Origin: Promethearchaeota archaeon
Lineage (GTDB): Archaea; Asgardarchaeota; Lokiarchaeia; Sigyniarchaeales; SOKP01
DNA: 64,000 nt
Direction of reading: 5' to 3'
Assembly (NCBI GenBank): GCA_019058015.1
Contig: JAHLWH010000192.1
Coordinates: forward strand, 302 to 64,301
The translations under genes and the position numbers were made by a program. The notes beneath the pieces were generated by a model. That model did no database searches. It had not been told where the DNA came from and was given only the letters and a program-made list of their open reading frames with translations. How positions within the stretch are numbered: the first letter of the stretch is position 1; each line of letters starts with the position of its first letter. This document shows, in pieces, positions 2,068 through 61,192 of this stretch.

Positions 2068-2133
2068 AATCTGACTAATTCAATAAGCATTTGTTATTTT
2101 GGGACATATTCCAGAGAAGCAATTCGAAATAGA

Positions 2134-3180
2134 GTGTTAATCAAAGGTTTAATTAATAATAGCATTAATATTATTGAATGTAATGAAAAAAGTAAAACAT
2201 TTGTAGAAGTTAATAAAGGAAGATATATTATTAACTCATTTAAGAACAGTTTAAAGCTATTAAAGAAGTTAATAGTTTCACATAATTTTGATTTAGTAAT
2301 AGTGGGATATCCTGGGTTCGACTCTGTGCTTCAGGTGAAGCGATTAACAAATAAACCCATTATTTATGATCCATTTATTTCTTCTTACTTGTCATATGTA
2401 TATGATTATAAATATATTAGTGAAAAGTCCTTATTAGCGAAAATTTCTTTTTTCATTGACTATTTTTCATTTAAAGAAGCAGATTTAATATTATCGGATA
2501 CAAAAATTCATGGGAAGATCTTTTCTAAGTTATTTAATCAAAAGCCAAGTAAGATCAAAACGATTTTAGTAGGTTCTGATCCTGAAATTTTTTATCCACG
2601 AGAGTATAAAAAAGATAAAAATAAATTCATTGTTGGTGTTTATGGCACATATATACCATTACAAGGCATAAAGGTTATAATAGAAGCAGCTAAAATTCTA
2701 AAGAGAGATCCTGAACTTAAATTTGAGATTATTGGTGGAAAACCAGGAAATGTTTTATTTCAAGAGATAATTAAATTTAGAAAAAAGTATAATTTAAATA
2801 ACGTTGAGTTGATACCACATATTCCTTTAAGTCAATTACCAGAAAAAATTGAACGTTCTGATGTCCAACTTGGAATTTTTGGGGGTACCTTAAAATCAAA
2901 TATTGTAATACCTAATAAAGTTTATTCCGCGTTAGCTATGAAAAAACCGATAAGAACCGCAAATACAATAGCAGGAAGGGACCTTCTGACACATGAGAAC
3001 AATGTTTATTTATGTAAAAATGCAAATGGTGTTTCATTGGTTAAATCGATCACTATATTGTATGAAGATAAAAATTTAAGAGATAAAATTGCTCGGAATG
3101 GATATAAATTATTTGAGAGAGATTTAACTCCTCAAAAATTAGGAAATGATTTAAAAAAGATTTTCTTAAAACTATTATAA
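2134..3180 (+). CDS. Glycosyltransferase, GT-B (group 1/GT4-like)
   Basis: 348-aa ORF. The C-terminal half has a GT-B-like pattern (GVYGTYIPLQGI ... VIPNKVYSALAMKKPI). It lies inside the glycan cluster. Confidence 0.55.
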   Translation: MLIKGLINNSINIIECNEKSKTFVEVNKGRYIINSFKNSLKLLKKLIVSHNFDLVIVGYPGFDSVLQVKRLTNKPIIYDPFISSYLSYVYDYKYISEKSLLAKISFFIDYFSFKEADLILSDTKIHGKIFSKLFNQKPSKIKTILVGSDPEIFYPREYKKDKNKFIVGVYGTYIPLQGIKVIIEAAKILKRDPELKFEIIGGKPGNVLFQEIIKFRKKYNLNNVELIPHIPLSQLPEKIERSDVQLGIFGGTLKSNIVIPNKVYSALAMKKPIRTANTIAGRDLLTHENNVYLCKNANGVSLVKSITILYEDKNLRDKIARNGYKLFERDLTPQKLGNDLKKIFLKLL

Positions 3181-3202
3181 TTAAAATAAATTAGAACTTT
3201 TT

Positions 3203-4351
3203 TTGGAACTCATGAAAATTTTACATATTATGGCATATCCACCTGATCATATTGGTGGCTATTCAGTTTATTGTCGAAATTTAATAAGAAATTTAAATTC
3301 TCATGGGTTTGAATGTGAAATTTTAACTTCTAATTATAATCGGATCTCTAAAAAGGGAGAATATTTTGATTCTGAAGGTATAAAAATTATTAGTAAAAGG
3401 TATTGGGGAAATCTTTTTGGAATAAATCCAATGTTTAATATTACAAGGTTTTTAAGCAAGTATTATATGAATTATGATATAATTCATGCTCATTCTTATA
3501 TTTTTTTTAGTTCAATTCAAGCTGCATTATTTAGAAAGATATGTAAATTCCCATTAGTTCTTCAATTACATGGCGGGATTCAAACTGATGCCTTTTATAC
3601 TTCAAATTTATTTGAAAATCTCCAACTTTTATTCAAAAAAATAATATTTGATCCAGTTTTTGGAAAATTTACTTTAAAAAATCCAGATTCTTTGGTATCA
3701 GTCTCAAATATAGACTTACAAACCGTTTTAAAAAGATTTAAGGTGAAACGGGAGAAAAATTATTGGATTCCAAATGGGGTTAATACCTCTCACTTCAAGC
3801 CACTTGATGGAGTTAAAAAGAGGTATCTAACTTTTATTGGTCGCTTAAGTTATATTAAGGGTTTTGATTTATTTTTAAAGATAATTGAAAAAATTTATAA
3901 AAAAAATCAGAATATTGAATTTCTTGTTGTGGGAAATGGTCCATTAAATTATATGCTTCAAAATTATAAAAAGCGAATTCCTATCAAACATTATTACAGA
4001 ATCCCATATGAAAAGATGGTCGAAATATATAATCAATCAAAAATTTTATTAATTAGTTCTCGATATGAGGGGATGCCATCAACAATGCTAGAATCAATGG
4101 CTTGTGGGACGCACGTTGTAGCTTCTAAAGTAGGAGGTATTCCTGAAGTAATTAAGGATGAAAAATACGGATTTTTGTTTGATATAAATAATTTAATGGA
4201 AGTTTCGGAAATTTGTTTAAAATTAATTGAGAATCAAACAAAAAGGACTGTAAATTCTAAAAAAATTAGGGAATACATAAAACGGAATTTTTCTTGGGAA
4301 ATAATTACCAAAAAAATGATTAGAGTTTATAAAGATTTGATAGAATCGTAA
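3203..4351 (+). CDS. Glycosyltransferase family 4 (group 1)
   Basis: Contains 'SRYEGMPSTMLESMACGTHVVASKVGGIPEVI', the E-x7-E region typical of GT4 retaining glycosyltransferases. The true start is probably the ATG at 3212 (MKILHIMAYPP). Confidence 0.8.
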   Translation: MELMKILHIMAYPPDHIGGYSVYCRNLIRNLNSHGFECEILTSNYNRISKKGEYFDSEGIKIISKRYWGNLFGINPMFNITRFLSKYYMNYDIIHAHSYIFFSSIQAALFRKICKFPLVLQLHGGIQTDAFYTSNLFENLQLLFKKIIFDPVFGKFTLKNPDSLVSVSNIDLQTVLKRFKVKREKNYWIPNGVNTSHFKPLDGVKKRYLTFIGRLSYIKGFDLFLKIIEKIYKKNQNIEFLVVGNGPLNYMLQNYKKRIPIKHYYRIPYEKMVEIYNQSKILLISSRYEGMPSTMLESMACGTHVVASKVGGIPEVIKDEKYGFLFDINNLMEVSEICLKLIENQTKRTVNSKKIREYIKRNFSWEIITKKMIRVYKDLIES

Positions 4352-22691: not shown

Positions 22692-23666
22692 TTATATCGT
22701 GTAATTCCTACTTTTAGACCATTCTATATATTTTTTAAGCCCTGTTTGAATATTATATTTTGGCTCAAATTTTAAAATTTTCCTCGCTTTTGTAATATCC
22801 GCAAAACTATCTCGAATATCACCTGGTCTGGGATCTGTAAAATCAACCCCTAAATACTCCTTCTCGCATATTTTTTTTATAATATCTGCAAGTTCATTTA
22901 CAGTAATCGGAGAACTCGCTCCTATATTGAATACCTCACCTGCGATGTTATTAGCAACTCCCGAAAGTAAATTTGCATTAACTACATCTTTAATGTAAGT
23001 AAAATCCCTCCGTTGCTCTCCGTCCCCAAATACAATCGGATTTTCATCTCGATATATCCGTCCGAGCCAAATCGGTATAACTCCACTATACGTCGAATCC
23101 TTCTGTCTCGGACCATAAACATTGAAATACCTTAATGCTACAGTGTTTAACCCATAAACTTTATAAAAAGCATATAGATATTTCTCACACGCCAATTTGG
23201 CTACACCATATGGAGAAATTGGGATAAGATTCATATCTTCCTTTTTAGGTAAGGTTGGCGTATCACCATAAACAGATGAACTCGATGCAAAAATGATTGT
23301 TTCCACATCCCGAATCCTTGCTGCATTTAGTATATTGAGTGTACCATTAACATTTACCTCATTACAAGAAATGGGCATTTTGACAGATTGGGGAACACTC
23401 GTAAAAGCAGCTTCATGAAAAATGATATCAATATCCTTGCAAATCTCTAATAAAAAATCATAATCACGGATATCTGCCTTATGAAAAGTAAAATTTTGGT
23501 TTTGCAAAGAATCTTTTATATTATCCATACGTCCATTGAAAAAATTATCAATTCCAATTACACTTGCTTTCTTCTCTAATAACTCATCAGATAGATTACT
23601 CCCAATAAATCCAGCAACACCAGTTACTAAGATCCTTTTACCTTCTAATTCTAAAATATAAAACAC
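22692..23666 (-). CDS. NAD-dependent nucleotide-sugar 4-epimerase (WbpP/TviC-like SDR)
   Basis: 'ILVTGVAGFIGSNL', 'SPYGVAKLACE' (YxxxK), 'RYFNVYGPRQ'. Confidence 0.85.
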   Translation of the reverse strand: MFYILELEGKRILVTGVAGFIGSNLSDELLEKKASVIGIDNFFNGRMDNIKDSLQNQNFTFHKADIRDYDFLLEICKDIDIIFHEAAFTSVPQSVKMPISCNEVNVNGTLNILNAARIRDVETIIFASSSSVYGDTPTLPKKEDMNLIPISPYGVAKLACEKYLYAFYKVYGLNTVALRYFNVYGPRQKDSTYSGVIPIWLGRIYRDENPIVFGDGEQRRDFTYIKDVVNANLLSGVANNIAGEVFNIGASSPITVNELADIIKKICEKEYLGVDFTDPRPGDIRDSFADITKARKILKFEPKYNIQTGLKKYIEWSKSRNYTI

Positions 23667-25074: not shown

Positions 25075-28000
25075 ATGTTTGAGAAACCATCACCCCAGCA
25101 ATTAGCCGAGGAGGCAGTTCGGCACTTAGATTTAGCCGAGAAATATGAGTCTCAGCAGAATTGGGCGAAAGCTATTGTAGAATATAAGAGGGCTGTTGAG
25201 TTATTAAAACAAAGTGGGTTATTATCAGTTCATGTTGATGATATAAATGAGCGGATTATGCGTTTAACTCAAGTAGCTCAACAGGAGAAGGCATTACAGC
25301 GAAAGAAAGCCGAAGCTGAGTTTTCTGGTATAAGGGATGAAGCATTTCACTTTTTGGATAAGGCAAAGTCTTTAGAAGTCAATGGTCGTTATCAAGAAGC
25401 CATATCTCGTTATTCCTCAGCTATAAAGTTATTGGAACAGGCTAAATGGGATGAGAGTTTATTAGGACAAATCAAGTTAAAACTTGAAAAATTAATGGAG
25501 ATCTTCAAACAGCAACAAATTATGGCCCATCAAAGAGCATTACGGGCTGAACAGACACCCACCAAGGTTGAAAAGTCTTTTGGAGCTCCGGAAACTACAA
25601 TTATTCCTGCAGGACTTGATAAACGAAGTAAATTACGAATGGAATTTGAGACCCAAAAACGAAAGGAAGAGGATATACAAAATCGTGCTTTTGAATCAAT
25701 TGATATGGGTAAAAAGTTTTTGGAGGAAAAGAATTTTGATGTAGCAAAATCAAAATATCTCGAAGCTTTAGATCTATTGAGATCTATTAGATGGACTGAC
25801 GAGAATTTGTCTTATTTATATAGCGATATTGATTCGGTTGAAAGGCAGAGGGTAGCATTTGAAAAAGCAGAAAGTCAGAAAGTTGAGCAAGCTGCTAGAG
25901 CTACACCCCAACCCGTTACTTCGGAAATAGCTCCTCAGAAAGAAATAGTTCCAGAAATTATGGATGTACAATCAAAAGCAATAATGAAATATGAAGCGAA
26001 GAAAAGACGTGAGGAGGAGGTTCAAAAGAAAGCATTTGAATTGATGGATGAGGGTGAGCGTTTAATAAAGGTCAAGGAATTTGATGAAGCCATGGAAAAG
26101 TATGGTATGGCTGGGCGGCTCTTAGAATCTATTGGGTGGGCTGACCAATTAGTTCATATTAATAAAATCATTGATAAGATATATAAAGATAGAGTAAATT
26201 ATAAAAAGTTGCAAGCACAGCAAATTAAAGCAAAAGAAGCAGCGGTTACTGCACCAGTCCCTGAAATCTCAGTAAAAGCAAAAGCGAATATTGAATTTAA
26301 AAAGCAGAAAATAGTAGAGTTTGAAGAACGAAATAAGCATGAAGAGCATATTCAAGAAGAAGCTTTTAAGATGATTGATATTGCAAAACGATTTGAGCGA
26401 GAGAAGCAATATGATGGGGCAATCGAGAATTTTAATAGAGCAATTGATTTATTACAATCAATAGGGTGGACTGATTATGTTAAGCCAATATACAAGTTCA
26501 TCTCTGATATTAGAAGGAGACAAGAAAATGAACAGAAAGTTCTCGAGGAGAAAAAATCTCGAGAGAAAGAGTATTTAAAATTCCAAGAGATTATAAAAAA
26601 GCATGAAAAGATTCAGGTAGACCAGGAAGTAGAAGGAATTTCCCTAAAACAGAAAGAGCTTGAAAAGACACGGGAAATAGATCACGCAAAAGAGAAAAAA
26701 GCTTTTAATGTAATAAATGAAGCCGATGAATTGGTAAGAAAAGGCAATTATGAAAAGGCAATTAAAAATTATAAAAAGGCACGTGATATTTTTAGAGAGA
26801 TAGGTTGGGCTGATCAAATTGCGACAATTGAAACTACATTAAACACGGTTCAATATAAATATCGTGAATTTTTGAAAAATGAGGAGACAGCCAAGGAATT
26901 AAAAGTTAAGCGTGCTAAGGAAGATGAAGAATTTCGAAAAACAATTGCCGAACAGATTAGAAAAGAGAGGGAAAAGTTAGAGAAGAAAAAGATCGAAATA
27001 AGAGAATATGAAACAGAGATTGAATATCGGAAGAAAAGAAAGGTTGAAGCTTTTAAAATTTTAGATGAGGCAGAAGAATACACATTACGCGGGGATTTTG
27101 ATATTGCCATAGAAAAATATTCCATGGCATTAATGATTTTTGCAGAAATTCAATGGACTGATGAATTATCACTCATTCAAGATGCTATTCGAGATCTTGA
27201 AAACAGAAAGAAAGAAATGAGACTTCTAAAACTAAAAGAAAGAGAAGATGCTTTAAAAAGAGAAAAGGAAACAAAAGAGTTTCAGGATAAAATTTCTGAA
27301 CAATTAAGAGAGGAACGTATGAAGTTAAGAGAAAAAGAGATTACAGTTAGAGAATATGAAAAAGAAGTGAAATATCGGGAAAAACAAAAGGAGAAAGCAT
27401 TTAAGATCTTAGATGAAGCTCAAAAATTGACAATCAGTGGAGATTTTGATGATGCTATAGAAAAATATGAAGTAGCTTCGATTATTTTTGCAGAAATTCA
27501 ATGGGATGATGAGTTAGCACTTATTCAGAATGCGATTCGAGAACTTGAGAATAAAAAAATTGAAAGAGAATTATGGGAACAGAAGACTCGAGAGGTATTA
27601 TTGAAACGTGAGCAAGAAACCCAAGAATTTCAGGATATGATTGCTGAAGAATTAAGGATGGAGCGTGAAAAGTTAAGAGAGGGTCAAATTGGACTAAGAG
27701 AACACGAAGCTGAAGTAAAATATCGTGAAAATCGAAAAAATGAGGCTTTTGATATTTTAGATGCAGCAGAGATGTTAATAATGAGGGGGGATTTAGATGC
27801 TACGATTGAAAAATATCATGAGGCATCGATTATTTTTGCTGAAATTCGGTGGACAGAAGAGTTGGCACTTATTCAAGGTGCAATACGCAAACTTGAGCAA
27901 CAAAAGAAAGAGAAAGAACTGTGGGAACAAATAGTAAGAGAGGAAGCTATCAAAAGGGAACAAGAAGCAAGAGAATTTCAGCATGAAATTGCTTTAATCA

Positions 28001-31000
28001 AGAGTCAGCAAGAAGAGAAAGTAAAATTTGCGCAATATATTCAGGAACAGAAAAAAATCTTATCAGAGCAGAAATTAAAGAAACAAGAAGAAGCATTGAA
28101 AATGCTTGAGAGTTCAGATGAGCATATAAGGGAAGGAAATTTAGATGAGGCTATTAGAATTCACAAATCGGCAATAGAAATTTTTAATCAAATTGGTTGG
28201 AAAGGTCCTTATCTTAGGGTAATTAAAGATACACTAGAGAATTTAAATAGACGTAAAGTTGAAATCTCACAAAAGTTGCAACGAAGGAAGGAATTAGCAG
28301 TTAAACATGAAGCTGAAGAAAGAGAATTTCAAGCGAGAATTACTCATAATATTGAGTTAGAAAAGAAAAAAATGCTTGTTAAAAAAATCACGACTCAGAC
28401 TAAAGAACGATTACTTGCTTATCGAGAAAAAAAGCGTATTGAAGCATTTGATGTAATGAATAAGGCGGAGATTTTAACAAAACGTGGAAATTTTGATGAA
28501 TCTTTAGACCATTATCGTCAAGCTGATATTATTTTAAGTGAAATTCAATTTCCCTCACAGGCAGTTAAAGAAATGATACAGAAAATTAAATTGAAACAAA
28601 AGGAACAAAAGGAGTTATTACGGAAAGAAAGAAAGCTTCAAATTCATAGGCAATTAGAGGAGGAGACATTTCAAAAAGAAATTACTCGTCGGTTAGCACT
28701 TGAGAGAGAGAAGATGATGGTGAAGAAGATAGCAATCGAAACACGCGAGAAGATAGAAGTATATCGTGAGCAAAAACGAGAGGAAGCATTTAAGATATTG
28801 GATGAGGCGGAAGATTTAACTAAAACCGGGAATTTTGAGTTGGCAATTAATGCATATCGAAATGCCGTGCTTCTTTTAAGTAAAATACAATATCCTATTG
28901 ATTCGATTCATGAAATGATTAGAAAGGTCCGGTTAAAAAAGGTTGAACAAGAGGAACTTAAACGAAGAGAAATTAAACTGGCAGCCCAAAGGGAGAGAGA
29001 ATCAAGAGAATTTCGGGATAAAATCGCTTGGGAATTAAGAAGAGAGAGTGAGAGATTAAGAAGAAGGACAATTGCACTTATAGAATATGAAGCTGAAGTA
29101 GAATATCGTGAAGATAGAAAAAAGGAAGCTTTTGATGTGTTAGATTCAGCAAAGTTATTAACACTTAGAGGAGATTTTGATGCATCTATTGAGAAATATC
29201 GGAAAACTTCTATAATATTAGCGGAAATTCAATGGACAGAAGAATTAACACTAATTCAAAATACAATTCGTCAACTGGAAAATAGGAAGAAAGAACAAGA
29301 ACTTTGGGAACAACAATCTCGAGAAGAAGCAATTAAACGAGAACTTGAAGAGAGAGAATTTCAAGAAAAAATTACTGAGGCATTAAGAAAGGAGGGTGAA
29401 AAATTAAGAGAAAAAGAGATTGCACTTAGGGAATATGAACAAGAAAAAGAATATCGAGAAAAAAGGAGGGATGAGGCATTAAAGATTTTGGATAAAGCAG
29501 AAAAATCGACTATTGCTGGAGATTTTGATACAGCTATAGAAAAATATCATGAAGCATCAATCATTTTCGCTGAAATACAATGGACAGAGGAATTAGCACT
29601 TATTCAGAACGCAGTTCGCGATCTTGAGTATAAAAAGAAAGAACGGGTGTTTTGGCAACAAAAAGCTCGAGAAGATGCAATTTGGAGGGAATTAGAAGCA
29701 AAAAAATTTCAAACAGAGATTACTGAGGCATTAAGAAAGGAACGTGAAAGATTAAAGGATAAAGAGATTGCAATCAGAGAGTATGAAGAAGAAGTAAAAT
29801 ATCGGGAGATAAGAAAAGAGGAAGCATTTCATATTTTAGATTCAGCACAAATTTTAACAATGAGGGGAAATTTCGATGGGGCTATTGAGAAATATCATGA
29901 AGCCTCAATAATTTTAGCAGAAATTCAATGGACAGAAGAATTAGAACATATTCAAAATGCAATTAGTGAGCTTAATAAGAAAGAGAAAGAAAGAGAGCTT
30001 TGGCAACTAAAATTAAGAGAGGCAGTACTTAAACAAGAGCATGAAATAAGAGAATTTCAGCATAAAATTTCCATAATGAAAAAGAATGAAGAAGATAAAG
30101 TAAAAATGGCGCAGTTTTTACAAAAACAGCAAAAGGTTTTATCAGAACAACAACTAAAAAAGCAAAATGACGCGTTGAAGATGCTTGAAGTTGCAGATAC
30201 TCATATAAAAAGAGGTCAATTAGATGATGCTATTGAAATTTATAAATCAGCAGTAGATATTTTTAATAAGATAGGTTGGAAGGGTCCTTATCTTAAAGTT
30301 TTCCAAGATACATTTGATAATTTAACTAAACGCAAACTTGAAATCGAACAATTAAAACAACATCAAATACAATTAGCAGCTAAACGTGAAGCAGAGGAAA
30401 GAGAATTTCAAGCTAAAATTGCTCGAAGTATAGAGTCTAAAAAGAAGAAGATGCTAGCAAAAGAAATTGCTATTCAAACTAGGGAAGAAATAATTGCTCA
30501 TCGAGATAATCGACGTAATAAAGCATTTGATATTATGGATAAAGCAGAGGAATTAACTAAAGCTGGAAAATTTGATGAATCATTAACGCTTTATCGCCAA
30601 GCTGATATAATATTAAGTGAAATTCAATTTCCATCATATGCGGTAAGAGAAATGATACAGAAAATCAAAATGAAGCAAAAGGAACAAGAGGAATTACGTC
30701 AAAAAGAGAGCGAACTTCAAATAAAAAGACAATTAGAAGAAGAGGCATTTCAAAGAGAAATTGCTCGTCAGGTAGCACTTGAGAGAGAGAAGATGATAGT
30801 GAAGGAAATTGAGATTGAAACTCAAGAAAATATAAGGGCATACCGAGAAAAACGCCGAGATGAAGTATTTAAAGTATTAGATGAAGCGGAATTCTTAACA
30901 AAAAGAGGAAACTTAGATTTAGCTATTGAAACCTATCGCAAAGCAGCTCTTTATCTAACTGAAATTCAATATCCAGTTGATGCAATTTATGAAATGATTA

Positions 31001-33858
31001 AAAAACTTCGCATTAAAAAAATAGAAGAAGATCAAATGAGACAGAGAAAAATTGAAGCACCTACTCAGAGAGAGCTTGAATATAGACGTTTTCAGGAAGA
31101 GATTACTCTAGAATTGAAAAGAGAAGAGGAAAGACTCAAAGAAAAAGAAATCATACTTAGAGAATATGAAAAAGAAAAGGAATATCGTGAAACAAGAAAG
31201 AATGAAACATTCAATATTTTAGATACTGCAAAACAATTTACAATTAGGGGAAATTTTGATGCCGCTATAGAAAAATATCACGAGGCTTCAATAATTTTGG
31301 CTGAAATTCAATGGACTGAGGAATTAACAAATATTCAAAATGCTATTCGTGAACTTGAAAGGAGAAAGAAGGAAAGAGAACTTTTGGAGCAAAAAGCAAG
31401 AGAAGAAGCGCTTAGGAGGGAACAAGAAACGAGAGAATTTCAATACAACATTGTGCAAATGAAGGCAATGAACGCAGAAAAAATAAAAATGGCACAATAT
31501 ATTCAAGAACAACAAAAGGTTTTATCAGAAGCAAATTATTTAAGACAAAATGAAACGCTAAAAATGCTTGAAGCTGCAGATACATATATAAAAAGGGATA
31601 AATTAGATGATGCTATTGAAATATACATATCTGCTATGGGAATACTTAATGAAATAGGATGGAAAGGACCATATTTAAAAGTAATTCAAGACACACTAGA
31701 TAATTTAAATAAGCGCAAACTCGAAATTGAACAAATCAAACAACAGCAAATTGAGTTAGCAGTTAAACGTGATGCAGAGGAGAGAGACTTTCAGGCTAAA
31801 ATCGCACGAAGTATAGAGAATGAAAGACAGAAAATGTTAGCAAAAAAAATTGTTATTCAGACTCAGGAAGAATTACTTGCTCATCGTGAAAATAGGCGTA
31901 AGGAAGGATTTGACATTATAGATAAAGCTAAAGAAATGACGAAAGAAGAAAATTTTGAGGAAGCATTAAGACTATACCGTCAAGCCGATATAATTTTAAG
32001 TGAAATTCAATTCCCATCAAACGTTGTAAAAGAAATGATTCAAAAAGTCAAATTGAAACAAAGGGAACAAGAAGAATTACGTCAAAGAGAAAGAGAGATT
32101 CAAATTCAGAAGCAATTAGAAGAAGAAGGATTTCAAAGGGAAATTGCTTATCACATAAAGCTTGAGAAAGAAAAAATGAGGTCAAAAAAGATTGCGCTTG
32201 AAGCACAAGAAATGATTAAAGATTATCGCGAACAAATAAGAGAAGAAGCATTTAGAGTACTAGAAGAGGCAGGACAATTAACCAACTCTGGAAAATATGA
32301 ATTAGCGATTAGTGCTTATAGAAATGCCACGTTAATTCTTAGCGAGATTCAATATCCTATCGATTCAATTAATGAGATGATTAAAAAAGTTCAGAATAAA
32401 AAATTAGAGCAAGAACAGCTTAAACATATAGAAATGGAGGCAGCGTTCCAAAGAGAGCAAGAAGAAAAGTACCTTGAAGAGGAAATTGGCCAAAAAGTTC
32501 AGTTAGAACAAGAAAGAATGATGAAGAAGTTAAAAGCTATTGTATCACGTGAAAAACTACAAGTACGTTTTGAACAACGAAGAGAAGAAGCATTCAAGGT
32601 ATTAGAAGAAGCAGAACAATTAATTAAGACTGGTAACTTTGATGAAGCAATTGAAACATACCGAAAAGCTTCATTAATTCTAAGTGAAATTCAATATCCC
32701 TTAGAGTCAATCAATGAGATGATCAGAAAAGTACAAATGAGAAAGTTCCAACAAGAACAGATTATTCAACAAGGAAGGGAAGCACAACTTCAGAGAGAAA
32801 GAGAAGAGGCCGATCTTAGAAGAATTATTGAAGAACGTCAGCGTCAAGAAGAGGAAATGAAAAGAGCAAGATATTTGGCTCTAAAGCAAAGAGAAGAATT
32901 AATTGCAAGAGTAGAAAGCCGTAGAGAAGTTGCATTTTCCCTATTGGAGAATGCTGATAAATTTTTAAAGCAATTTCCTCCTGATTTTGATAAATCAATT
33001 GAGTTATATTTAGAAGCTAGAAATATTCTTTTAGAAATAAATTGGGAGCCAGAAATTGCGAATTTAGACACTTTAATCAGAAATTTAAGAGAAGAAAAAC
33101 AAAAATTTATTATTCAACAAAAGCAGGAAGAGGAGGTCCGAATTCGTGCTGCTGAAGAATATGAGAAATTTAAGCAGGAAATCCTAAGAAAAAAGTTAGA
33201 AGTTAAAAGAGTTCAAGAAGAACAACGGATAAAGCTTGAAGCATTTAAATTTGAACAAGAACAACGAGAAAAACTTCAACAAGAGGGTTTTAATCTTCTT
33301 GATGATGCAAAAAAATCAGTTTTAATGCATCAGTTTAATTTTGCTTACAAACAATTTGATCAGGCTGTTGAAAAATTTAAAAGTATTGGCTGGTTTGAAC
33401 AGATAAAATATATTGAAAAGGAAATAGAAACTACTAAGAAATTAGAAGAAAATGCAATAAAAGCACAGGAAGAGGTTAAAAGAGCTCAAGAGGCACTCTT
33501 AAAACAAAAAGGATTAGAAGAACAGCGGCGAATAGAAGAAGAAACAATGAAAATACAATCAGTTAAGGAAATTACAGCAATTTCAGATGACATTATCAAA
33601 TCATTAAGACAACAACGATTAGAACAAGAAAGTATTCAAGTTGTTACTAAAGAACAAATAAAATCAGATGCTGCAAGTTTTGCAAAAGAGTTAACAAAAA
33701 TGATTAAAATTAAACAAAATTTAGTAGCAGAAATTGAAAAAGCTGAAGAGGACGAGAAACAAAAAGCAATAGAGAAAGAAAAACAAAAAACCAAGGAAGA
33801 ACTAAAAGATCTACATAAAAGGATAAAAGATGCTGCCAAAAAATCAAAGAAAAAATAA
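25075..33858 (+). CDS. Giant (2,927 aa) cytosolic repeat protein: ~25 MIT-like three-helix modules separated by Glu/Arg/Lys-rich helices
   Basis: Uninterrupted 8,784-nt ORF with no TM or signal segment. The recurring unit is 'EAFxxLDxAExLxxxGxFDxAIExYxxAxxIxxEIxW..EL..IQxAIxxLE', followed by 'REFQxxI...REYExExEYRExRK'. Confidence 0.9.
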   Translation: MFEKPSPQQLAEEAVRHLDLAEKYESQQNWAKAIVEYKRAVELLKQSGLLSVHVDDINERIMRLTQVAQQEKALQRKKAEAEFSGIRDEAFHFLDKAKSLEVNGRYQEAISRYSSAIKLLEQAKWDESLLGQIKLKLEKLMEIFKQQQIMAHQRALRAEQTPTKVEKSFGAPETTIIPAGLDKRSKLRMEFETQKRKEEDIQNRAFESIDMGKKFLEEKNFDVAKSKYLEALDLLRSIRWTDENLSYLYSDIDSVERQRVAFEKAESQKVEQAARATPQPVTSEIAPQKEIVPEIMDVQSKAIMKYEAKKRREEEVQKKAFELMDEGERLIKVKEFDEAMEKYGMAGRLLESIGWADQLVHINKIIDKIYKDRVNYKKLQAQQIKAKEAAVTAPVPEISVKAKANIEFKKQKIVEFEERNKHEEHIQEEAFKMIDIAKRFEREKQYDGAIENFNRAIDLLQSIGWTDYVKPIYKFISDIRRRQENEQKVLEEKKSREKEYLKFQEIIKKHEKIQVDQEVEGISLKQKELEKTREIDHAKEKKAFNVINEADELVRKGNYEKAIKNYKKARDIFREIGWADQIATIETTLNTVQYKYREFLKNEETAKELKVKRAKEDEEFRKTIAEQIRKEREKLEKKKIEIREYETEIEYRKKRKVEAFKILDEAEEYTLRGDFDIAIEKYSMALMIFAEIQWTDELSLIQDAIRDLENRKKEMRLLKLKEREDALKREKETKEFQDKISEQLREERMKLREKEITVREYEKEVKYREKQKEKAFKILDEAQKLTISGDFDDAIEKYEVASIIFAEIQWDDELALIQNAIRELENKKIERELWEQKTREVLLKREQETQEFQDMIAEELRMEREKLREGQIGLREHEAEVKYRENRKNEAFDILDAAEMLIMRGDLDATIEKYHEASIIFAEIRWTEELALIQGAIRKLEQQKKEKELWEQIVREEAIKREQEAREFQHEIALIKSQQEEKVKFAQYIQEQKKILSEQKLKKQEEALKMLESSDEHIREGNLDEAIRIHKSAIEIFNQIGWKGPYLRVIKDTLENLNRRKVEISQKLQRRKELAVKHEAEEREFQARITHNIELEKKKMLVKKITTQTKERLLAYREKKRIEAFDVMNKAEILTKRGNFDESLDHYRQADIILSEIQFPSQAVKEMIQKIKLKQKEQKELLRKERKLQIHRQLEEETFQKEITRRLALEREKMMVKKIAIETREKIEVYREQKREEAFKILDEAEDLTKTGNFELAINAYRNAVLLLSKIQYPIDSIHEMIRKVRLKKVEQEELKRREIKLAAQRERESREFRDKIAWELRRESERLRRRTIALIEYEAEVEYREDRKKEAFDVLDSAKLLTLRGDFDASIEKYRKTSIILAEIQWTEELTLIQNTIRQLENRKKEQELWEQQSREEAIKRELEEREFQEKITEALRKEGEKLREKEIALREYEQEKEYREKRRDEALKILDKAEKSTIAGDFDTAIEKYHEASIIFAEIQWTEELALIQNAVRDLEYKKKERVFWQQKAREDAIWRELEAKKFQTEITEALRKERERLKDKEIAIREYEEEVKYREIRKEEAFHILDSAQILTMRGNFDGAIEKYHEASIILAEIQWTEELEHIQNAISELNKKEKERELWQLKLREAVLKQEHEIREFQHKISIMKKNEEDKVKMAQFLQKQQKVLSEQQLKKQNDALKMLEVADTHIKRGQLDDAIEIYKSAVDIFNKIGWKGPYLKVFQDTFDNLTKRKLEIEQLKQHQIQLAAKREAEEREFQAKIARSIESKKKKMLAKEIAIQTREEIIAHRDNRRNKAFDIMDKAEELTKAGKFDESLTLYRQADIILSEIQFPSYAVREMIQKIKMKQKEQEELRQKESELQIKRQLEEEAFQREIARQVALEREKMIVKEIEIETQENIRAYREKRRDEVFKVLDEAEFLTKRGNLDLAIETYRKAALYLTEIQYPVDAIYEMIKKLRIKKIEEDQMRQRKIEAPTQRELEYRRFQEEITLELKREEERLKEKEIILREYEKEKEYRETRKNETFNILDTAKQFTIRGNFDAAIEKYHEASIILAEIQWTEELTNIQNAIRELERRKKERELLEQKAREEALRREQETREFQYNIVQMKAMNAEKIKMAQYIQEQQKVLSEANYLRQNETLKMLEAADTYIKRDKLDDAIEIYISAMGILNEIGWKGPYLKVIQDTLDNLNKRKLEIEQIKQQQIELAVKRDAEERDFQAKIARSIENERQKMLAKKIVIQTQEELLAHRENRRKEGFDIIDKAKEMTKEENFEEALRLYRQADIILSEIQFPSNVVKEMIQKVKLKQREQEELRQREREIQIQKQLEEEGFQREIAYHIKLEKEKMRSKKIALEAQEMIKDYREQIREEAFRVLEEAGQLTNSGKYELAISAYRNATLILSEIQYPIDSINEMIKKVQNKKLEQEQLKHIEMEAAFQREQEEKYLEEEIGQKVQLEQERMMKKLKAIVSREKLQVRFEQRREEAFKVLEEAEQLIKTGNFDEAIETYRKASLILSEIQYPLESINEMIRKVQMRKFQQEQIIQQGREAQLQREREEADLRRIIEERQRQEEEMKRARYLALKQREELIARVESRREVAFSLLENADKFLKQFPPDFDKSIELYLEARNILLEINWEPEIANLDTLIRNLREEKQKFIIQQKQEEEVRIRAAEEYEKFKQEILRKKLEVKRVQEEQRIKLEAFKFEQEQREKLQQEGFNLLDDAKKSVLMHQFNFAYKQFDQAVEKFKSIGWFEQIKYIEKEIETTKKLEENAIKAQEEVKRAQEALLKQKGLEEQRRIEEETMKIQSVKEITAISDDIIKSLRQQRLEQESIQVVTKEQIKSDAASFAKELTKMIKIKQNLVAEIEKAEEDEKQKAIEKEKQKTKEELKDLHKRIKDAAKKSKKK
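25438..33420 (+). repeat. In-frame array of 24 modules at 330-351-nt spacing (plus one shorter N-terminal module)
   Basis: The anchor is the codon three residues before the conserved W/F/Y. Anchors start at 25438, 25783, 26128, 26458, 26797, 27145, 27493, 27841, 28189, 28540, 28882, 29224, 29572, 29920, 30268, 30619, 30961, 31303, 31651, 32002, 32344, 32686, 33034 and 33382. I checked all of them to be in frame with 25075. Confidence 0.9.
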
Positions 33859-35572: not shown

Positions 35573-37165
35573 ATGGAACCGATGGAAAAAAGGGAATTTT
35601 CCTTAGAAGAAAGAAAGATGTATGCTCGTCAGCAGCTCGTTGAAGGCTGGGATCAAGAGACTATAAAAAATAGTTGTGCTTTGATTATTGGAGTTGGTGC
35701 TCTCGGGTGCGAGATCGCTAAGGATTTAGCTTTAATGGGTATAGGGAAATTAATTTTAGTTGATATGGATAAAATTGAAACCTCAAATCTCTCAAGACAA
35801 ATGTTATTTCATGCAGGAGATGAGGGTAGAACAAAAGTTGAGGTTGCCGCAGAGCGTTTAAAATTGATGGCTCCGTTTCTCGAAGTTGAGTATTATTTTG
35901 ATAAATTACAAAATCTTCCAATGAAGGTGTATGAAGAATCGGATGTTATTGTTGCTGCATTAGATAATGTTAGGGCAAGAATGGATTTAAACAAGATTGC
36001 TTTAAGATTAAAAAAACCAATGGTTGAGGGTGGTACTGTAGGATTTGAGGGGCACGTTCAAAACATTATCCCAAAAGGCTCAAATATAAAATTCCATGAG
36101 AGAGAAAAAGTTATAGATGAAATAGTGCAAGAGAAATTATGGAATTTATCTGAAGAAGAATATACTGAATATTTTGCTGCTCAAGAAAGTATAGAAAAGC
36201 TTGAGGAGCGAATATCTCTATTAAAATCTCAATTTATCGAGCAGGTTGTTGAAAAAGTACGCCAGCAAGTTGGAAATGAGTTTGATGAAAAATATTCTGA
36301 AGATTATCTTGATCAAACAGCTTGTTATAGGTGTCTAGTTCCTATTCCACCACCTGATGATAAATTAATTGCAGCATGCACATTAAAAGGTATTCCGAGA
36401 AATAGAAATCATTGTGTTTTAAAAGCAGAGTTAAATTTTGAAAAGAAATATGGACGGATGCCAGATTTGGATAATGATGAGGATATATACAAATTAATGG
36501 AATTGGCTCAAGAGGAATTAGAATTATTACAAGAACGAGTTTTTAAAGAAAACGTCTCTGATGAGCAATTATCAACATTATCAGAAGAAGAAATGCAAAA
36601 GTGGAAGATTAATATTCGAGATACTTTCGGTCCAAATTATGTATTTGAAGATATGGAAAATATTTTAGGAAATAAAATCGCTGCGGTTCAGACTGTTAGT
36701 TCAATTATCGCAAGTATTCAATCCCAGGAGGCACTAAAATTAATATTTAGAGCAAAGGGAAGGGATATTGGTCCCCCCATGGATCCTCCTTATGTAAATT
36801 ATAGCGGAATTTATGGAATATTCGAGCAGGTTCCGGTGTTTAAACGAGAAGATTGTATTGATTGTGGGGATATTGAAGGAGAGGAAAATGTTAGTATTGT
36901 AGTTCCATTTAATTCAAAGGTTAAAGACATTTTTAGTGCATTGGATGTTTCTGGTTATAAATTAGATTCCGAAAAGTGGATGATCACGAATTCAATGAAT
37001 AAAGAGATTCTTTGGCATCCCTCAATTCCCACTTTTAAAGATCCTGAAGCTCTATTACAAAGCCTAAAAATAACGAGTAATGACGTTGTAACATTTACAC
37101 CTTTAAGTAACGATATTGGTGAATTAGAAATAAAAAAATATAATGTAATCGTTTCCTATTTGTAA
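35573..37165 (+). CDS. Ubiquitin-activating-enzyme (E1)-like protein, ThiF/MoeB/UBA family
   Basis: Adenylation domain: 'IIGVGALGCEIAKDLALMGIGKLILVDMDKIETSNLSRQMLF' and 'LDNVRARMDLN'. Zn-type Cys pairs: 'CYRC' and 'CIDC'. Eukaryote-type active-site context: 'AACTLKGIPRNRNHC' (Cys codon 36377-36379). There is also a ~90-aa C-terminal domain. Confidence 0.85.
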   Translation: MEPMEKREFSLEERKMYARQQLVEGWDQETIKNSCALIIGVGALGCEIAKDLALMGIGKLILVDMDKIETSNLSRQMLFHAGDEGRTKVEVAAERLKLMAPFLEVEYYFDKLQNLPMKVYEESDVIVAALDNVRARMDLNKIALRLKKPMVEGGTVGFEGHVQNIIPKGSNIKFHEREKVIDEIVQEKLWNLSEEEYTEYFAAQESIEKLEERISLLKSQFIEQVVEKVRQQVGNEFDEKYSEDYLDQTACYRCLVPIPPPDDKLIAACTLKGIPRNRNHCVLKAELNFEKKYGRMPDLDNDEDIYKLMELAQEELELLQERVFKENVSDEQLSTLSEEEMQKWKINIRDTFGPNYVFEDMENILGNKIAAVQTVSSIIASIQSQEALKLIFRAKGRDIGPPMDPPYVNYSGIYGIFEQVPVFKREDCIDCGDIEGEENVSIVVPFNSKVKDIFSALDVSGYKLDSEKWMITNSMNKEILWHPSIPTFKDPEALLQSLKITSNDVVTFTPLSNDIGELEIKKYNVIVSYL

Positions 37166-37911: not shown

Positions 37912-38421
37912 CTAATCCATGGCGTATTTTTTTGTCCAGCTCTCTGCTTTTTTATCAAATTTCGATTTTTGTCTAAAATATTGTTCTCCCGCTTCATGAT
38001 TTAAAGGATCGCCAGGATTAAAAAATGGTGGTTCCACATGCATCATTCCCTTCAATGCTTCGACAATATTTGTTAAAGTTTTAGAAGGAGTCCATCCTGA
38101 AGCTCCAGTAGAGGCATCAACCTTACCTACAAGATCGGGATTTATAAGATCAAGACAGATATTCAATTTTCCTGGCGGAATTGAAGAGTCGATATTAGGA
38201 TGCCACATTAAAGTATGGGCATAAACATATGGAGGTGCAAAAGGATAATTCTCAGGCATTTTTATCTCAAACAAGAATCTACCCCCACTATATGGAGTTG
38301 CTGGTTTTCCAATTATAGTAAGCCTTAAATGATCTATTGATCTTCCCCAAGGTTCGATAATTACAAAATTAATTTCTTTAAATGCCTCAATTGCTTCTGC
38401 ATAATCAGTTTCTTCTCTAAT
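37912..38421 (-). CDS. Ubiquitin-conjugating enzyme (E2, UBC fold)
   Basis: 'GKPATPYSGGRFLFEIKMPENYPFAPPYVYAHTLMWHPNIDSS...GKLNICLDLI' is the UBC HPN...C signature (Cys codon 38157-38155). The C-terminus 'AESWTKKYAMD' resembles UBE2D '...REWTQKYAM'. The track ORF (TTG at 38274) removes the first ~50 residues of the fold, and the frame is open up to 38424. Confidence 0.8.
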   Translation of the reverse strand: MREETDYAEAIEAFKEINFVIIEPWGRSIDHLRLTIIGKPATPYSGGRFLFEIKMPENYPFAPPYVYAHTLMWHPNIDSSIPPGKLNICLDLINPDLVGKVDASTGASGWTPSKTLTNIVEALKGMMHVEPPFFNPGDPLNHEAGEQYFRQKSKFDKKAESWTKKYAMD

Positions 38422-38664
38422 TTTTTACACCTTATAAGTTTAATTGTAGTCTCTATTTAAAATTATATTATAAAAATCATTATGTTAAGTATTTTTATTA
38501 TAATTGAGTATAGTTAAAACTTTATTTAATTATACATCTTGATTTTTATTAATAAATCTTTTTAATAGATTTTTAGTTTAGTTAATTTCTTTAATATTTA
38601 ATTTAATAGACCAATGAAATATTTTAAAGAATATATTTAATAAATAGCCTAGTATTATTACCAA

Positions 38665-39120
38665 TTGGTTATTATGGGAAAAGAATTACCTAAGAAACAT
38701 TTAAAGGAGAGAATTTTAAAATTTTTGAATAAGAGGAAGGTTTTAGTCTTATGCACATGCAATAATAATATTCCTCGCGCAACTCCGCTTGATTTTTACA
38801 ATGATGGATTAGACATATATATGACACCTGTAGGTGGAGCGAAAGTAGAAAATCTAAAAGCGAACCCTATAGCTAGTATAGGAATATATACTCCGCTTTC
38901 CGAAGGTGAGGTTCAAGGATTGCAAATAACATCAGCTAAAATAAAATTTATTTTTCCGGATGATGAGGATTATGAACATGCGAGAAAGATAGTTAAAAGG
39001 AAAGCAAAAATGTTTTTGAAGATAGTCCCTGAAAAAATCGATTATTTAGATTATTCCTTAAGTAAAGAGGGATTTTCAAGGTTTCAAGTTTTAGAATTGA
39101 ATAATAGTCAAAAAAAATGA
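38665..39120 (+). CDS. Pyridoxamine-5'-phosphate-oxidase-like FMN-binding split-barrel protein
   Basis: 'VLVLCTCNNNIPRATPLDFYNDGLDIYMTPVGGAKVENLKANPIASIGIY' fits the PNPOx-like pattern. The ATG at 38674 is the likelier start. Confidence 0.55.
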   Translation: MVIMGKELPKKHLKERILKFLNKRKVLVLCTCNNNIPRATPLDFYNDGLDIYMTPVGGAKVENLKANPIASIGIYTPLSEGEVQGLQITSAKIKFIFPDDEDYEHARKIVKRKAKMFLKIVPEKIDYLDYSLSKEGFSRFQVLELNNSQKK

Positions 39121-40832: not shown

Positions 40833-41309
40833 TTAAAGCTTCTCAGTTGATTTCTCCCATTTTTTAAATTCTGAGTCAAGTGTTGCAATAAAATCATCTG
40901 TTTTATCTACATCGAACTCTATTATATCTTTATCGATTTTAAAATTAAATTCCTCAGCCCAATCAAAAATAAAGTCCCATAGATCGCTTTCTTTCATTTT
41001 AAGAACCTCAGCCATCCGAGATACCTCCAATCGCCGTGATACTCTAACTATTGTTGCCAATTTTGCGAGCCGCTGTTGTTGCAGCTGCTCTTGTTGTTCT
41101 TCTTCCATGATGGGTTGTAATTTTTCTGGAACTGCTTTTATTTCTTTTTTAGTCGGTCTAAATTTATATAAGCTTATCGTAACAACAATATATCCGCACC
41201 AGGTGATTTGTATTGGAAACACATAGCTAAACCTTAAAAAAATTATTGTGATTATTAATAATATACATCCAAGTATCCCAAATACAATAGAACTATTTAC
41301 TTTTAACAA
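40833..41309 (-). CDS. Membrane-anchored protein with C-terminal PCI-like winged-helix domain (tentative)
   Basis: Two N-terminal TM helices are followed by 'VRVSRRLEVSRMAEVLKMKESDLWDFIFDWAEEFNFKIDKDIIEF'. This resembles the winged-helix end of PCI domains. Confidence 0.4.
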   Translation of the reverse strand: MLKVNSSIVFGILGCILLIITIIFLRFSYVFPIQITWCGYIVVTISLYKFRPTKKEIKAVPEKLQPIMEEEQQEQLQQQRLAKLATIVRVSRRLEVSRMAEVLKMKESDLWDFIFDWAEEFNFKIDKDIIEFDVDKTDDFIATLDSEFKKWEKSTEKL

Positions 41310-41704
41310 TTGTGCAAATAAAATTGAGAGAAAAATGAAAAGGGGGCTACTCCATAAAACACTGTTGGTATAAAAATTATAAGAAAGATTAAATAAATTA
41401 ATCCAATCTTGCGAAATATTCGTTTGTATTTTTCTTGAATAACCGAATGTATTGATGTATCCTTTAATTCCATCAATTTATATAAATATAAGTCAATTGT
41501 AACCAAATAAAAACCAACAAATAAAGGTAATAATACTATATCAGCAGAACCATGTAAAAAATCACCAATAATCAGGGGAATTCCAATACCAATACATCCA
41601 AGTGCCCCGGATACTATAGCTTTATTTACTTTTGTAAAGAAAGCAAATATAATTGAAAGAAAAATAAAAAAAAGACCTTGCCAGCCACCATAAACGAAAA
41701 GCAT
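41303..41704 (-). CDS. Small polytopic membrane protein, unknown function
   Basis: 133 aa, about 4 hydrophobic helices. It overlaps the downstream gene start by 7 nt. Confidence 0.5.
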   Translation of the reverse strand: MLFVYGGWQGLFFIFLSIIFAFFTKVNKAIVSGALGCIGIGIPLIIGDFLHGSADIVLLPLFVGFYLVTIDLYLYKLMELKDTSIHSVIQEKYKRIFRKIGLIYLIFLIIFIPTVFYGVAPFSFFSQFYLHNC

Positions 41705-42208
41705 ATATCCCCCTCCAGGTGGGATTGGTAAAAACGCGACTATTATAAAAAAAATAATAACGATTAAATGTTTTAATCAAATATTGCGAAACTTCTGTTT
41801 ATTTTTCGCATTATCCATTAATTTTTTCACTGAATAATTTAAATTATTAATTAATTCTTTCTATTCAATTATAATATTTGATTATATCAAATTTAATTTA
41901 TTCCAAATCTATATAAATATTTTTTAAATATTTATGTAGTGAACCATCTAGCGAATTAAGTGGAGTTGATTTTATTTTCTCTGTTATTAAAAATTAATAT
42001 TTCCAAAGGGAGGAAGGACGCCCTAATATTTCTAACAATATTTATATTGATCTTGCCCAATTCTTAGAAGTTAATGGAATTCTTATTTAATTTTAAGGAT
42101 TAAACTTTTTGTGAGTTAAATTTCTGCGTAAATTTTATTTTCTTTAATAATAATACTTTATAATAATTTGGATTTGCTAATCTAAAAAAAATAAATTAAG
42201 GAGCAAAC

Positions 42209-59695: not shown

Positions 59696-60994
59696 TTATT
59701 TTTTCTTAAGTAATTTTTTTAACTCATATATTTTATTGGTAGCATTTTCTAAATCATACTTTAATTTTTTCATTTGCTTATTGTAATCATTTTGTTTAAT
59801 TTTTCCGTCTCTTTTCTTTTTCTTCAAGAATTTAATTAAATTATTAACTGTTTTTACTTTACTCTCTAATCCTTCTAATTCCGCAGTTAATTCTTCCTTA
59901 GACCGTTTCTTTTTTATAGAAGGCATTCCTTTCGGTCTTGGAGGTAACGGCTTTTCAGTTGATGGTTTTTCAGGTAATTCAGTTAATTCTAAAAGTTCAT
60001 TGTCCTCTTCAACGGCTTCCGCTTCAACTTCCTTTTTTAATTTCTCAAAATCTATTCCAAGATCTGGGGGTTTTTCCAACTGTGGTGGTTGTTGAATTTT
60101 TTCTTGCATTTCTTTGATTGCCTGTAATTCAATAATTTCATCTTCTGATCCTATTACTGAATCTATTAATTTATTTACAACATCACTTAAAGCATTTAAT
60201 TCATCTAATACTGAATATAGAGTTTGTATAAGGTCACTTTTTGAGGAGATTTTAATTTCTGATTTTACAGTAATTGGTGAATACGGTTGAGAACCAACTT
60301 TTTCTTCAGCATCAGAAAACGCAGGATGTAAGCTTGAACCATATGCCAGTCCAGGTTTTTTGGTTGGAATTGTAGAAATTCCTTTTTCCTTTAATTTCAA
60401 TCGATGTTCAGAAATCAACCAATTAAATAAATTTAAAGCGAGTTTTTGATGTTGTTCATTTTCAATTCCACAGCCAATTTCATCTCTAAAGATTTCATAA
60501 CTACCAATTGCGCATACTAACCCATTATCAGCTTCTGATATAGCTATCAAAGGAACTGAGAAGGGATCCGCATCTGGATCACTCATAGCAATTGGAATAG
60601 AACCCCCAATTGTTGTAAGAGAACAACCTGCACGATAGCAAATTTCATTAATTCCTTCATTGATTGGATGAGGTGGTGTAAATGTAGAAGCCTTTGGTAA
60701 ATTTTCCATACCATAATTATTAGGTGAAAGCACTTGATCATTTTCAAATGTAATTCCAAACCGTTCAGCAAGAGCGGAAAGGTTAGTTTGACGACCCTTA
60801 TCACCTCCAGCATGATTTAATAATAATAATCCACCACCATCTTCTCTCACCCAATTCTCAATTTCATTTAATTCCTGAGGTGCAATTTTTACAAAATCAG
60901 GACAAGCAAACACCAAAATATCATAAGGTTTTAGAGATTCATGAGTAATTGGAAATTCTGAAAATTGATATGATTCAAAACCTTGAGAATCCAA
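59696..60994 (-). CDS. GATase1-like/DUF4350-like domain protein with long acidic-basic coiled-coil tail
   Basis: 'YDILVFACPD...EIENWVREDGGGLLLLNHAGGD' has the pattern of DUF4350/ThuA-like domains. The frame stays open upstream to 61084 ('TITYYIAWNESHKPRGRIDINYKTIKQL'), so the TTG start in the track probably truncates the domain. Confidence 0.5.
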   Translation of the reverse strand: MDSQGFESYQFSEFPITHESLKPYDILVFACPDFVKIAPQELNEIENWVREDGGGLLLLNHAGGDKGRQTNLSALAERFGITFENDQVLSPNNYGMENLPKASTFTPPHPINEGINEICYRAGCSLTTIGGSIPIAMSDPDADPFSVPLIAISEADNGLVCAIGSYEIFRDEIGCGIENEQHQKLALNLFNWLISEHRLKLKEKGISTIPTKKPGLAYGSSLHPAFSDAEEKVGSQPYSPITVKSEIKISSKSDLIQTLYSVLDELNALSDVVNKLIDSVIGSEDEIIELQAIKEMQEKIQQPPQLEKPPDLGIDFEKLKKEVEAEAVEEDNELLELTELPEKPSTEKPLPPRPKGMPSIKKKRSKEELTAELEGLESKVKTVNNLIKFLKKKKRDGKIKQNDYNKQMKKLKYDLENATNKIYELKKLLKKK

Positions 60995-61192
60995 GAGTTG
61001 TTTTATTGTTTTGTAATTAATATCAATTCTTCCTCGCGGCTTGTGTGATTCATTCCATGCGATATAATAAGTAATTGTTAAAAGTCACCTTTTTTCTTTA
61101 AAAATAAAAATTATATAAATAATCAATAAATCTTCTTGCTTTAATCTTTATTTTTATTTAATTTAAAATTTTATTTCATTTCGGGCGTTTAC

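Follow-up and report, generated by a model that had tools for sequence, protein, structure and literature searches.

An E2 gene without a canonical start codon

We analysed a stretch of 64,000 nucleotides (nt) of contig JAHLWH010000192.1 from a Promethearchaeota archaeon, referred to below as the window (G+C about 30%). Its minus strand encodes a ubiquitin-conjugating enzyme (E2), and the translation start of this gene is our subject. The 5' region of the gene reads ...aacttataAGGTG TAA AAA ATT AGA GAA GAA ACT GAT TAT on the minus strand, and in RNA form the presumed leader would be 5'-GGUGUAAAAAAUUAGAG. The frame is open from 38424 down to a TAG at 37914-37912, and the first ATG, GTG or TTG within it, according to a listing of the open reading frames (ORFs), is the TTG at 38274. 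Reading of the reverse complement and the ORF listing both confirm what a first-pass annotation of this DNA had observed, that the E2 frame lacks a canonical start. The following features are referred to throughout:

37912..38421, minus strand: E2 coding sequence in the new definition, beginning with ATT and comprising 169 codons, the last for Asp, followed by the TAG stop
38419..38421, minus strand: ATT, the proposed (near-cognate) initiation codon, aligned with the ATG, GTG or TTG start of orthologues
38422..38427, minus strand: TAAAAA, the spacer from motif to start codon, made up of an in-frame TAA (38427-38425) and AAA (38424-38422)
38428..38432, minus strand: AGGTG, a Shine-Dalgarno (SD)-like motif, part of GGAGGTGATC, 6 nt upstream of the ATT
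38430-38428, minus strand: in-frame GTG inside AGGTG, the 'start' of an apparent start-stop
38272..38274, minus strand: TTG chosen by ORF callers, internal Leu50 of the re-defined gene
38194..38202, minus strand: HPN motif, CAT CCT AAT (His74-Pro75-Asn76), with H and N invariant alignment columns
38155..38157, minus strand: TGT, the catalytic cysteine (Cys89) in NICLDL, assigned from sequence and alignment
38454..38461, minus strand: TATA-box-like TTTAAATA, picked by eye and a candidate only

The interval from the TAA to the TTG at 38274 contains no stop and, as had been claimed, no ATG, GTG or TTG, although its length is 50 codons and not the 51 first reported. On the trinucleotide frequencies of the window, a 50-codon run without stops or canonical starts has p = 2.5e-3 per ORF, and 0.12 such runs are expected among the 47 ORFs of the window. 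The minus-strand coordinates also agree with the 6-nt spacing between GGTG and ATT that had been proposed. A tRNA scan of the window found no tRNA.

The extended frame encodes a complete E2

The product extended to the ATT matches the Pfam family UQ_con (PF00179) with 89.7 bits (cut-off 27, E = 1.7e-25, residues 28-163). It carries the E2 motifs WHPNID...NICLDL, whose H, N and C hardly vary, if at all, across 32 orthologues. An AlphaFold model of the extended product, made with an alignment of 32 orthologues, has a predicted local distance difference test score (pLDDT) of 92.9 and shows the full UBC fold, including a helix at residues 2-14 and strands at 21-25, 32-38, 49-55 and 66-69. The top Foldseek matches of the model in the PDB are UbcH5A/B and Ubc4 (E about 4e-13, template modelling (TM) scores of 0.74-0.88 over 166-172 columns). 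The family match, the model and the structural matches together bear out the earlier proposal of a complete UBC-fold, UBE2D-like E2. In the model, the product from the TTG at 38274 begins at the start of strand 3. It would be without helix 1 and strands 1-2, and the UBC fold could therefore not form.

The homologues of the window E2 are Promethearchaeota/Lokiarchaeota E2 proteins, and an E1-like gene adjoins it at a distance of 750 bp:

35573..37165, plus strand: E1-like ThiF-family gene, 530 amino acids (aa), ThiF match at 2e-56 and a weak E1_4HB match

Because the fold, the HPN motif, the catalytic cysteine, the adjacent E1-like gene and the homologues are all as expected, the frame is judged, from sequence and model, to encode a complete UbcH5-like E2 of the ordinary Asgard kind, for which thioester formation with a ubiquitin-like protein passed on by an E1 is a predicted activity.

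Orthologues begin at the position of the ATT

For comparison, 80 species-representative loci were gathered from GTDB genomes and five from other assemblies. The tabulated set holds 84 sequences, consisting of 81 non-redundant loci (window included) together with L002, L003 and L025. Most orthologues are, like the re-defined gene product, 169 aa long and begin MREETDY, and in the alignment their initial M falls on the ATT of the window. The codon directly preceding REETDY in the 84 sequences is ATC in 33, ATG in 25, ATT in 12, GTG in 6, TTG in 5 and TTT in 3. The start position is thus occupied by ATC or ATT (hereafter ATY) in 45 sequences, by a canonical ATG, GTG or TTG in 36 and by TTT in 3, and about half of the species have ATC or ATT where others have a canonical start. 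Had the conserved E2 core really begun at a downstream TTG or ATG, the orthologues would start there; they begin at the ATT position instead. Of the possibilities first raised for this gene, the comparison favours ATT initiation behind GGTG, with the ATT aligned with the ATG of orthologues and 45 loci having ATC or ATT at this place.

Three codons upstream of the ATY, 34 of the 45 ATY loci have a GTG in frame, and it is always the GTG of (A/T)GGTG(AT). Gene callers begin at this upstream codon, giving products such as MIIIREE (P0001) and MLKIREE (P0065). Ten ATY loci have no in-frame canonical start at all, namely the window, L006, L007, L008, L029, L031, L064, L074, L077 and L081. In L029, L031, L064, L074, L077 and L081 the GGTGA is one base out of frame and itself gives an in-frame TGA, as in GAT AGG TGA TGA GTA ATC AGA. 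A rough neighbour-joining tree distributes ATY over four or more clades, with a Fitch minimum of five changes and one clade of about 38 species. It places L029, L064, L074 and L077 inside the large ATC clade, and L031 and L081 in a separate ATT clade. Within the large ATC clade the frame of the GGTGAT varies and the ATC is retained. Such constancy of the ATC beside a shifting GTG frame points to the ATY, and not the GTG, as the start, and is the strongest single argument for it. The start-position ATY codons also differ in composition from the isoleucine codons inside these genes: 75% of the former and 23% of the latter are ATC, and ATA accounts for 0 of 44 of the former and 17% of the latter.

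Gene calls at these loci can be truncated as well as extended: the window E2 is called as 120 aa from the TTG, and P0050 (L001-3) as 115 aa from a downstream ATG. Two canonical-start orthologues, L012 and L067, read AAG TGA ATG TAA TTG AGA, with an in-frame ATG-TAA right before the TTG start. Short, unrelated insertions of 8-12 residues occur at differing positions in the orthologues P0006, P0026, P0061 and P0074, and L004 has a frameshift in the E2 (3001-3363); these could be assembly artefacts or small insertions. Upstream of the E2, L001 has a GIY-YIG gene (941-1954) where the window has a PNPOx-like gene (38665-39120), so local gene content differs between otherwise near-identical neighbourhoods.

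The initiation region is conserved in an intact gene

The GTG TAA AAA ATT of the window recurs unchanged in L006, L007 and L008, three representatives of separate GTDB species (98, 97 and 94% protein identity), and L001-3 have GTG TAA AAA TTT in three independent SRA assemblies. The spacer TAAAAA is unchanged in all seven sequences of the window's clade, which come from at least four species and are all full length, with no frameshift or stop. For the N-terminal 53 codons the ratio of non-synonymous to synonymous substitution rates (dN/dS) is 0.14 for the window against L008 and 0.21 for the window against L001, at dS 0.5-0.7, and the first of these comparisons involves 15.8 synonymous and 12.2 non-synonymous differences. 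Codons 1-53 are under purifying selection. Since L004 reads GTG TTA AAA ATT, one T-to-A change would be enough to give the TAA found in the window's clade, as if this stretch were a non-coding spacer tolerant of substitution.

A strong SD-like motif accompanies the ATY codons

The archaeal anti-SD consensus at the 3' end of 16S rRNA is established. As reference for the motif we used GGAGGTGATC, the complement of this conserved 3' end, as a consensus not read from the genomes studied here. In each of the 45 ATY loci, 5 nt or more match the reference, and the matching stretch, mostly (A)GGTGAT followed by 4 nt, ends 4-6 nt before the ATY. A match of 5 nt is attained by only 2 of the 36 canonical-start loci; in 23 the match is 4 nt long (mostly GTGA), and in 11 there is none (Fisher p about 1e-20 for the difference, with shared ancestry ignored). 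The registers in which the anti-SD is matched vary by locus and include GGAG, GAGGTG and GGTGAT. Thus, the strength of the SD-like motif co-varies with the weakness of the start codon. Its spacing would suit a ribosome-binding site, but the geometry relative to TATA-like elements is ambiguous as to its place in the mRNA.

Compensation of a weaker start codon by a stronger SD has been described in prokaryotes (PMC5622118). A natural strong SD is found in the Pyrococcus abyssi aEF1A mRNA, GGAGGUGAU-UUAA-AUG (PMC6237735), in which the GGAGGUGAU element, 4 nt and AUG have the same geometry as the motif of the ATY loci.

Proposed initiation at ATT

We consider that the gene specifies a functional E2, probably translated from the ATT at 38421-38419 into a 169-aa protein, Met-Arg-Glu-Glu-Thr-Asp-Tyr..., under the guidance of the AGGTG. 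The GGTG would lie within the transcript and act as an SD element, with the AGGTG six bases upstream pairing with the 3' end of 16S rRNA and thereby setting the ATT in the P site. The initiator Met-tRNA would accept the ATT despite the mismatch at the third position, so that Met would be the first residue, and the weak start may keep the output of E2 low. Most simply, the GTG-TAA is not a functional unit but a ribosome-binding motif followed by an A-rich non-coding spacer, and it is in frame with the E2 because the spacing is 6 nt.

Several observations weigh against initiation at ATT guided by an SD. Of the 45 ATY loci, 34 retain the in-frame GTG inside GGTG as a formally possible start. Shared ancestry was left out of account in the statistics on codon bias and SD strength, which, given how the loci are related, contain no more than about four independent contrasts. 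SD motifs are seldom found in Promethearchaeum/Lokiarchaeial genomes (PMC7531240; PMC12993045), and a survey of first canonical starts in the fetched genomes found almost none before ordinary genes. The TATA-like TTTAAATA of the window would place the 5' end about at the GGTG, leaving a very short leader. For the large ATC clade, the best candidate for a TATA-like block would set the 5' end about 3-4 nt before the ATC, past the GGTG, which could then have no SD role in these loci, although all such assignments were made by eye in 70% A+T DNA and are unreliable. Finally, the TTT of L001-3 is two mismatches from AUG and is not accounted for by an ATT start.

The L001-3 sequences are the closest relatives of the window in Logan, and three independent samples agree that TTT replaces the ATT (2830-2845 in L001). 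The E2 is otherwise intact in them, with a C-terminal dN/dS against L008 of 0.086. TTT is also found at the equivalent position of two other genes (L074, L035), where an in-frame GTG exists. In L001-3 an out-of-frame ATT occurs one base earlier and is followed by TAG. We speculate that a +1 slip onto UUU, as in prfB, would restore the E2 frame. The likeness to the programmed +1 frameshift of prfB (RF2), which concerns L001-3 only, lies in the SD-like element that precedes A-UUU-AG by a few bases. In L001-3 the element would be followed by AUU (gap 5) and then UAG in the -1 frame, and slippage would have to be by the initiator tRNA, which is hypothetical.

Alternative explanations

The main rival keeps the ATT as the start but makes the mRNA leaderless, or gives it a leader of a few bases, so that the GGTG(AT) would be promoter-proximal or 5'-terminal and the ribosome would load at the 5' end. 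We retain it, although we consider it unlikely, because of the rarity of SD motifs in Lokiarchaeial genomes and the positions of the TATA-like elements, which lie 30-37 nt upstream of the ATY and predict a 5' end 3-10 nt before it. However, TATA elements are not reliably assigned in DNA of such base composition, and a promoter-proximal role does not fit a motif that matches the anti-SD in several registers, has a canonical spacing of 4-7 nt and is stronger where the start is weaker. Leaderless initiation has moreover been reported to need a 5' AUG (PMC5622118). The identity of the start codon is the same under either arrangement.

The GTG-TAA could alternatively be a genuine start-stop, with initiation at the GTG at 38430, termination on the TAA and resumption at the nearby ATT on the same mRNA. 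Its conservation in all seven sequences of the window's clade would fit such reinitiation, as would the ATG-TAA that precedes the TTG start in L012 and L067. However, the GTG has no SD-like motif ahead of it and is itself within the motif. No in-frame start-stop is present in other ATY lineages, which read, for example, AGG TGA TGA GTA ATC or TGG TGA CAA ACG ATT. This applies to L029, L031, L064, L074, L077 and L081, where the out-of-frame GGTGA merely supplies a TGA, and the GTG TTA AAA ATT of L004 makes the TAA a single substitution in a spacer-like stretch. The initiation region and leader gave no Rfam match and no fold better than shuffled sequences, and no structured element of the type that tethers ribosomes in viral termination-reinitiation was found in the leader. 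We therefore regard the start-stop mechanism put forward in the first-pass annotation as improbable.

Two further readings are very improbable, and we reject both decay of the gene and recoding of the TAA. In one, the TAA is a nonsense mutation at codon 2 of a pseudogene, as had been suggested for a recent event, or only a truncated product is made, from the TTG at 38274 or the ATG of Met54. Truncated products are indeed what the callers give for the window and for L001-3, and L001-3 additionally have TTT in place of the ATT. Decay is contradicted by the N-terminal dN/dS of 0.14-0.21 at dS 0.5-0.7 and by the seven full-length, intact frames, and a product from the TTG, without helix 1 and strands 1-2, is predicted by the model to be incapable of the UBC fold. 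In the other, the GTG at 38430 is the start, and readthrough or recoding of the TAA adds three residues to the protein. Many orthologues do have an open GTG-xxx-xxx-ATY frame and are called from that GTG (including P0001 and P0065). However, TAA is an ordinary terminator here, ending 37 of the 47 long ORFs of the window, the route is closed to lineages with a double in-frame TGA TGA before the ATC, and the Rfam and folding checks of the leader found no known recoding signal. We discarded a frameshift on the A-run, since neither of the other two frames has a start and the A-run is absent from other ATY lineages. A sequencing or assembly error at 38419-38430, a base-call error having been among the early suggestions, is refuted by six independent assemblies: these 12 bases recur, either exactly or with a single substitution, in L006-8 and in the three SRA assemblies L001-3.

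Other genes with possible near-cognate starts

Two more genes of the window appear, from their sequences, to begin at near-cognate codons, one at ATT and one at CTG:

59696..61075, minus strand: gene with a GIFT/IFT52-like domain; GGTGA at 61089-61085, then 9 nt, then ATT at 61075-61073
2071..3180, plus strand: glycosyltransferase; CTG at 2071, called GTG at 2134, AGGT at 2060-2063

The GIFT/IFT52-like gene has no canonical start for 30 codons after the ATT, and its Pfam domain begins within them; its relatives L086-88 have a TTG one base away and a 4-nt length difference just downstream. In the glycosyltransferase, the conserved N-terminus ICYFGTY, which aligns with the MKICYFG of homologues, lies upstream of the called GTG at 2134. 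The CTG, two codons past a stop, is invariant in four relatives, and synonymous variation begins right after it; AGGT, GGGT or TGGT stands 7 nt ahead of the CTG in L089-L093. This gene likely starts at the CTG at 2071.

A similar arrangement recurs in other ORFs of the fetched loci. In non-E2 ORFs whose first canonical start is the GTG of a GGTG, ATT or ATA stands at codon +3 in 16 of 21 cases, compared with 5-9% in other ORF start classes. At non-E2 ORF 5' ends, counted in any frame, ATH lies 6 nt after the GGTG in 12 of 19 cases, compared with 8 of 101 at other in-frame offsets. This recurrence of the E2 spacing speaks for the ATT start of the E2. Several of the ORFs counted are orthologues of one methyltransferase, for which the true start is itself uncertain. 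Called GTGs inside (A/T)GGTG with ATT or ATA three codons on are seen at 17663, 23666 (minus strand) and 49465 of the window and in L016, L030, L038, L044 and L067. Judging by this pattern, such called GTGs may be part of a ribosome-binding motif, and the ATH the real start.

The epimerase at 22692-23666 has the same architecture, and its orthologues mostly start one residue after the window's ATT; as a further near-cognate start its sequence is suggestive, not decisive. The methyltransferase that adjoins the E2 in L005, L015, L016, L027, L046 and other loci has GAGGTG, 6 nt and then ATT, ATA, ATG, TTT or GTT, followed by CCA. Its translation could in fact begin at a Met conserved ten codons further on, and we did not count it as clean support. 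The ORFs at 17114, 62385 and 23947 have long start-free extensions that look like chance, and their N-termini are normal at ATG.

Two adjacent membrane-protein ORFs on the minus strand of the window, 41303-41776 and 40833-41477, have start-free upstream extensions of 24 and 56 codons. The first extension resembles a transmembrane helix and may, from its sequence, mark a further non-canonical start; the second runs into the upstream gene, in a different frame. Elsewhere on the plus strand, 17663-19519 encodes a 618-aa protein with an Arf/Roc-type small GTPase domain and a weak C-terminal match to a CdvA-like coiled coil. The span 25075-33858 is a single ORF of 2927 aa, with a purine-rich coding strand (GC skew 0.2-0.4, AT skew about 0.3).

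These cases raise the possibility that Loki-type Asgard archaea regularly use near-cognate starts (AUU, AUC, AUA and CUG), perhaps in 3-6% of genes and typically paired with a strong SD, although the majority of genes in this lineage lack such a motif. We hold the conclusion on the E2 itself with good confidence; the general claim is tentative, of moderate probability but somewhat short of even. If it is true, Asgard gene models are systematically truncated or extended at such genes, and the Asgard proteomes used in studies of eukaryogenesis hold mis-started genes beyond repair by standard callers. The relaxed start-codon stringency of the a/eIF1-1A-2 machinery would then predate eukaryotes, and near-cognate initiation, usually seen as a eukaryotic speciality, may have deeper roots.

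For the E2, the interest lies in its start and not in the protein. The occurrence of an ATC or ATT start with a strong motif in some species, and of ATG with a weak one in sister species, is a natural experiment in start-codon selection. It concerns an initiation machinery of archaeal/eukaryotic type, in the archaeal group closest to eukaryotes and across dozens of species, and it is directly testable in cultured Lokiarchaeia.

Comparison with known systems

E2 proteins of this kind have already been described in Asgard archaea (PMC9192718, PMC5654768). The window E2 shares with the E1/E2/RING ubiquitylation systems of Asgard archaea and Caldiarchaeum (PMC5654768, PMC9192718) the UBC fold, the HPN motif, the catalytic cysteine and the adjacent E1-like gene. 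As a protein it is nothing unusual beside them, and the translation start alone departs.

Minimal start-stop ORFs, in which a start codon is followed by a stop in the 5' region of a gene, have been found in E. coli by ribosome profiling (10.1101/520783), and the GTG-TAA of the E2 has the same form. However, the 'start' of the E2 lacks a separate ribosome-binding site, being itself part of the motif that would serve the downstream codon, and the arrangement is missing from other lineages that share the non-canonical start.

No account of conserved near-cognate starts in an Asgard archaeon came to light in the searchable literature. Ribosome profiling of Haloferax volcanii yielded near-cognate sites that its authors treated as putative alternative starts and set aside (PMC7261190); the proposed E2 codon differs from these in being the only conserved start of a conserved gene. 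Switches from AUG to AUU are otherwise extremely rare, at 1 in 61,358 in a survey across prokaryotes (PMC5622118).

The closest likeness to the proposed start is to bacterial AUU starts behind an SD, as in infC and pcnB of E. coli and ebpA of Enterococcus faecalis (PMC4447247). In these cases, as here, the gene is conserved or essential, AUU is the sole possible start, a motif resembling a ribosome-binding site stands at the usual distance, automatic annotation moves the start to a canonical codon further downstream, and the rate of translation is presumed to be low. The E2 differs in its archaeal host, which has eukaryote-type aIF1/1A/2 and no IF3, and in that its start codon is not fixed but alternates between ATG, GTG, TTG, ATC and ATT among species. 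No autoregulatory logic of the kind that links infC to discrimination by IF3 is apparent for the E2.

The factors at work would instead be homologous to those of eukaryotic near-cognate initiation (CUG, AUU and AUC), in which an initiator tRNA is likewise accepted on a codon with a single mismatch with the participation of a/eIF1, 1A and 2. However, eukaryotic near-cognate starts rely on scanning and Kozak context, whereas the E2 would have an SD-like motif as its positional cue.

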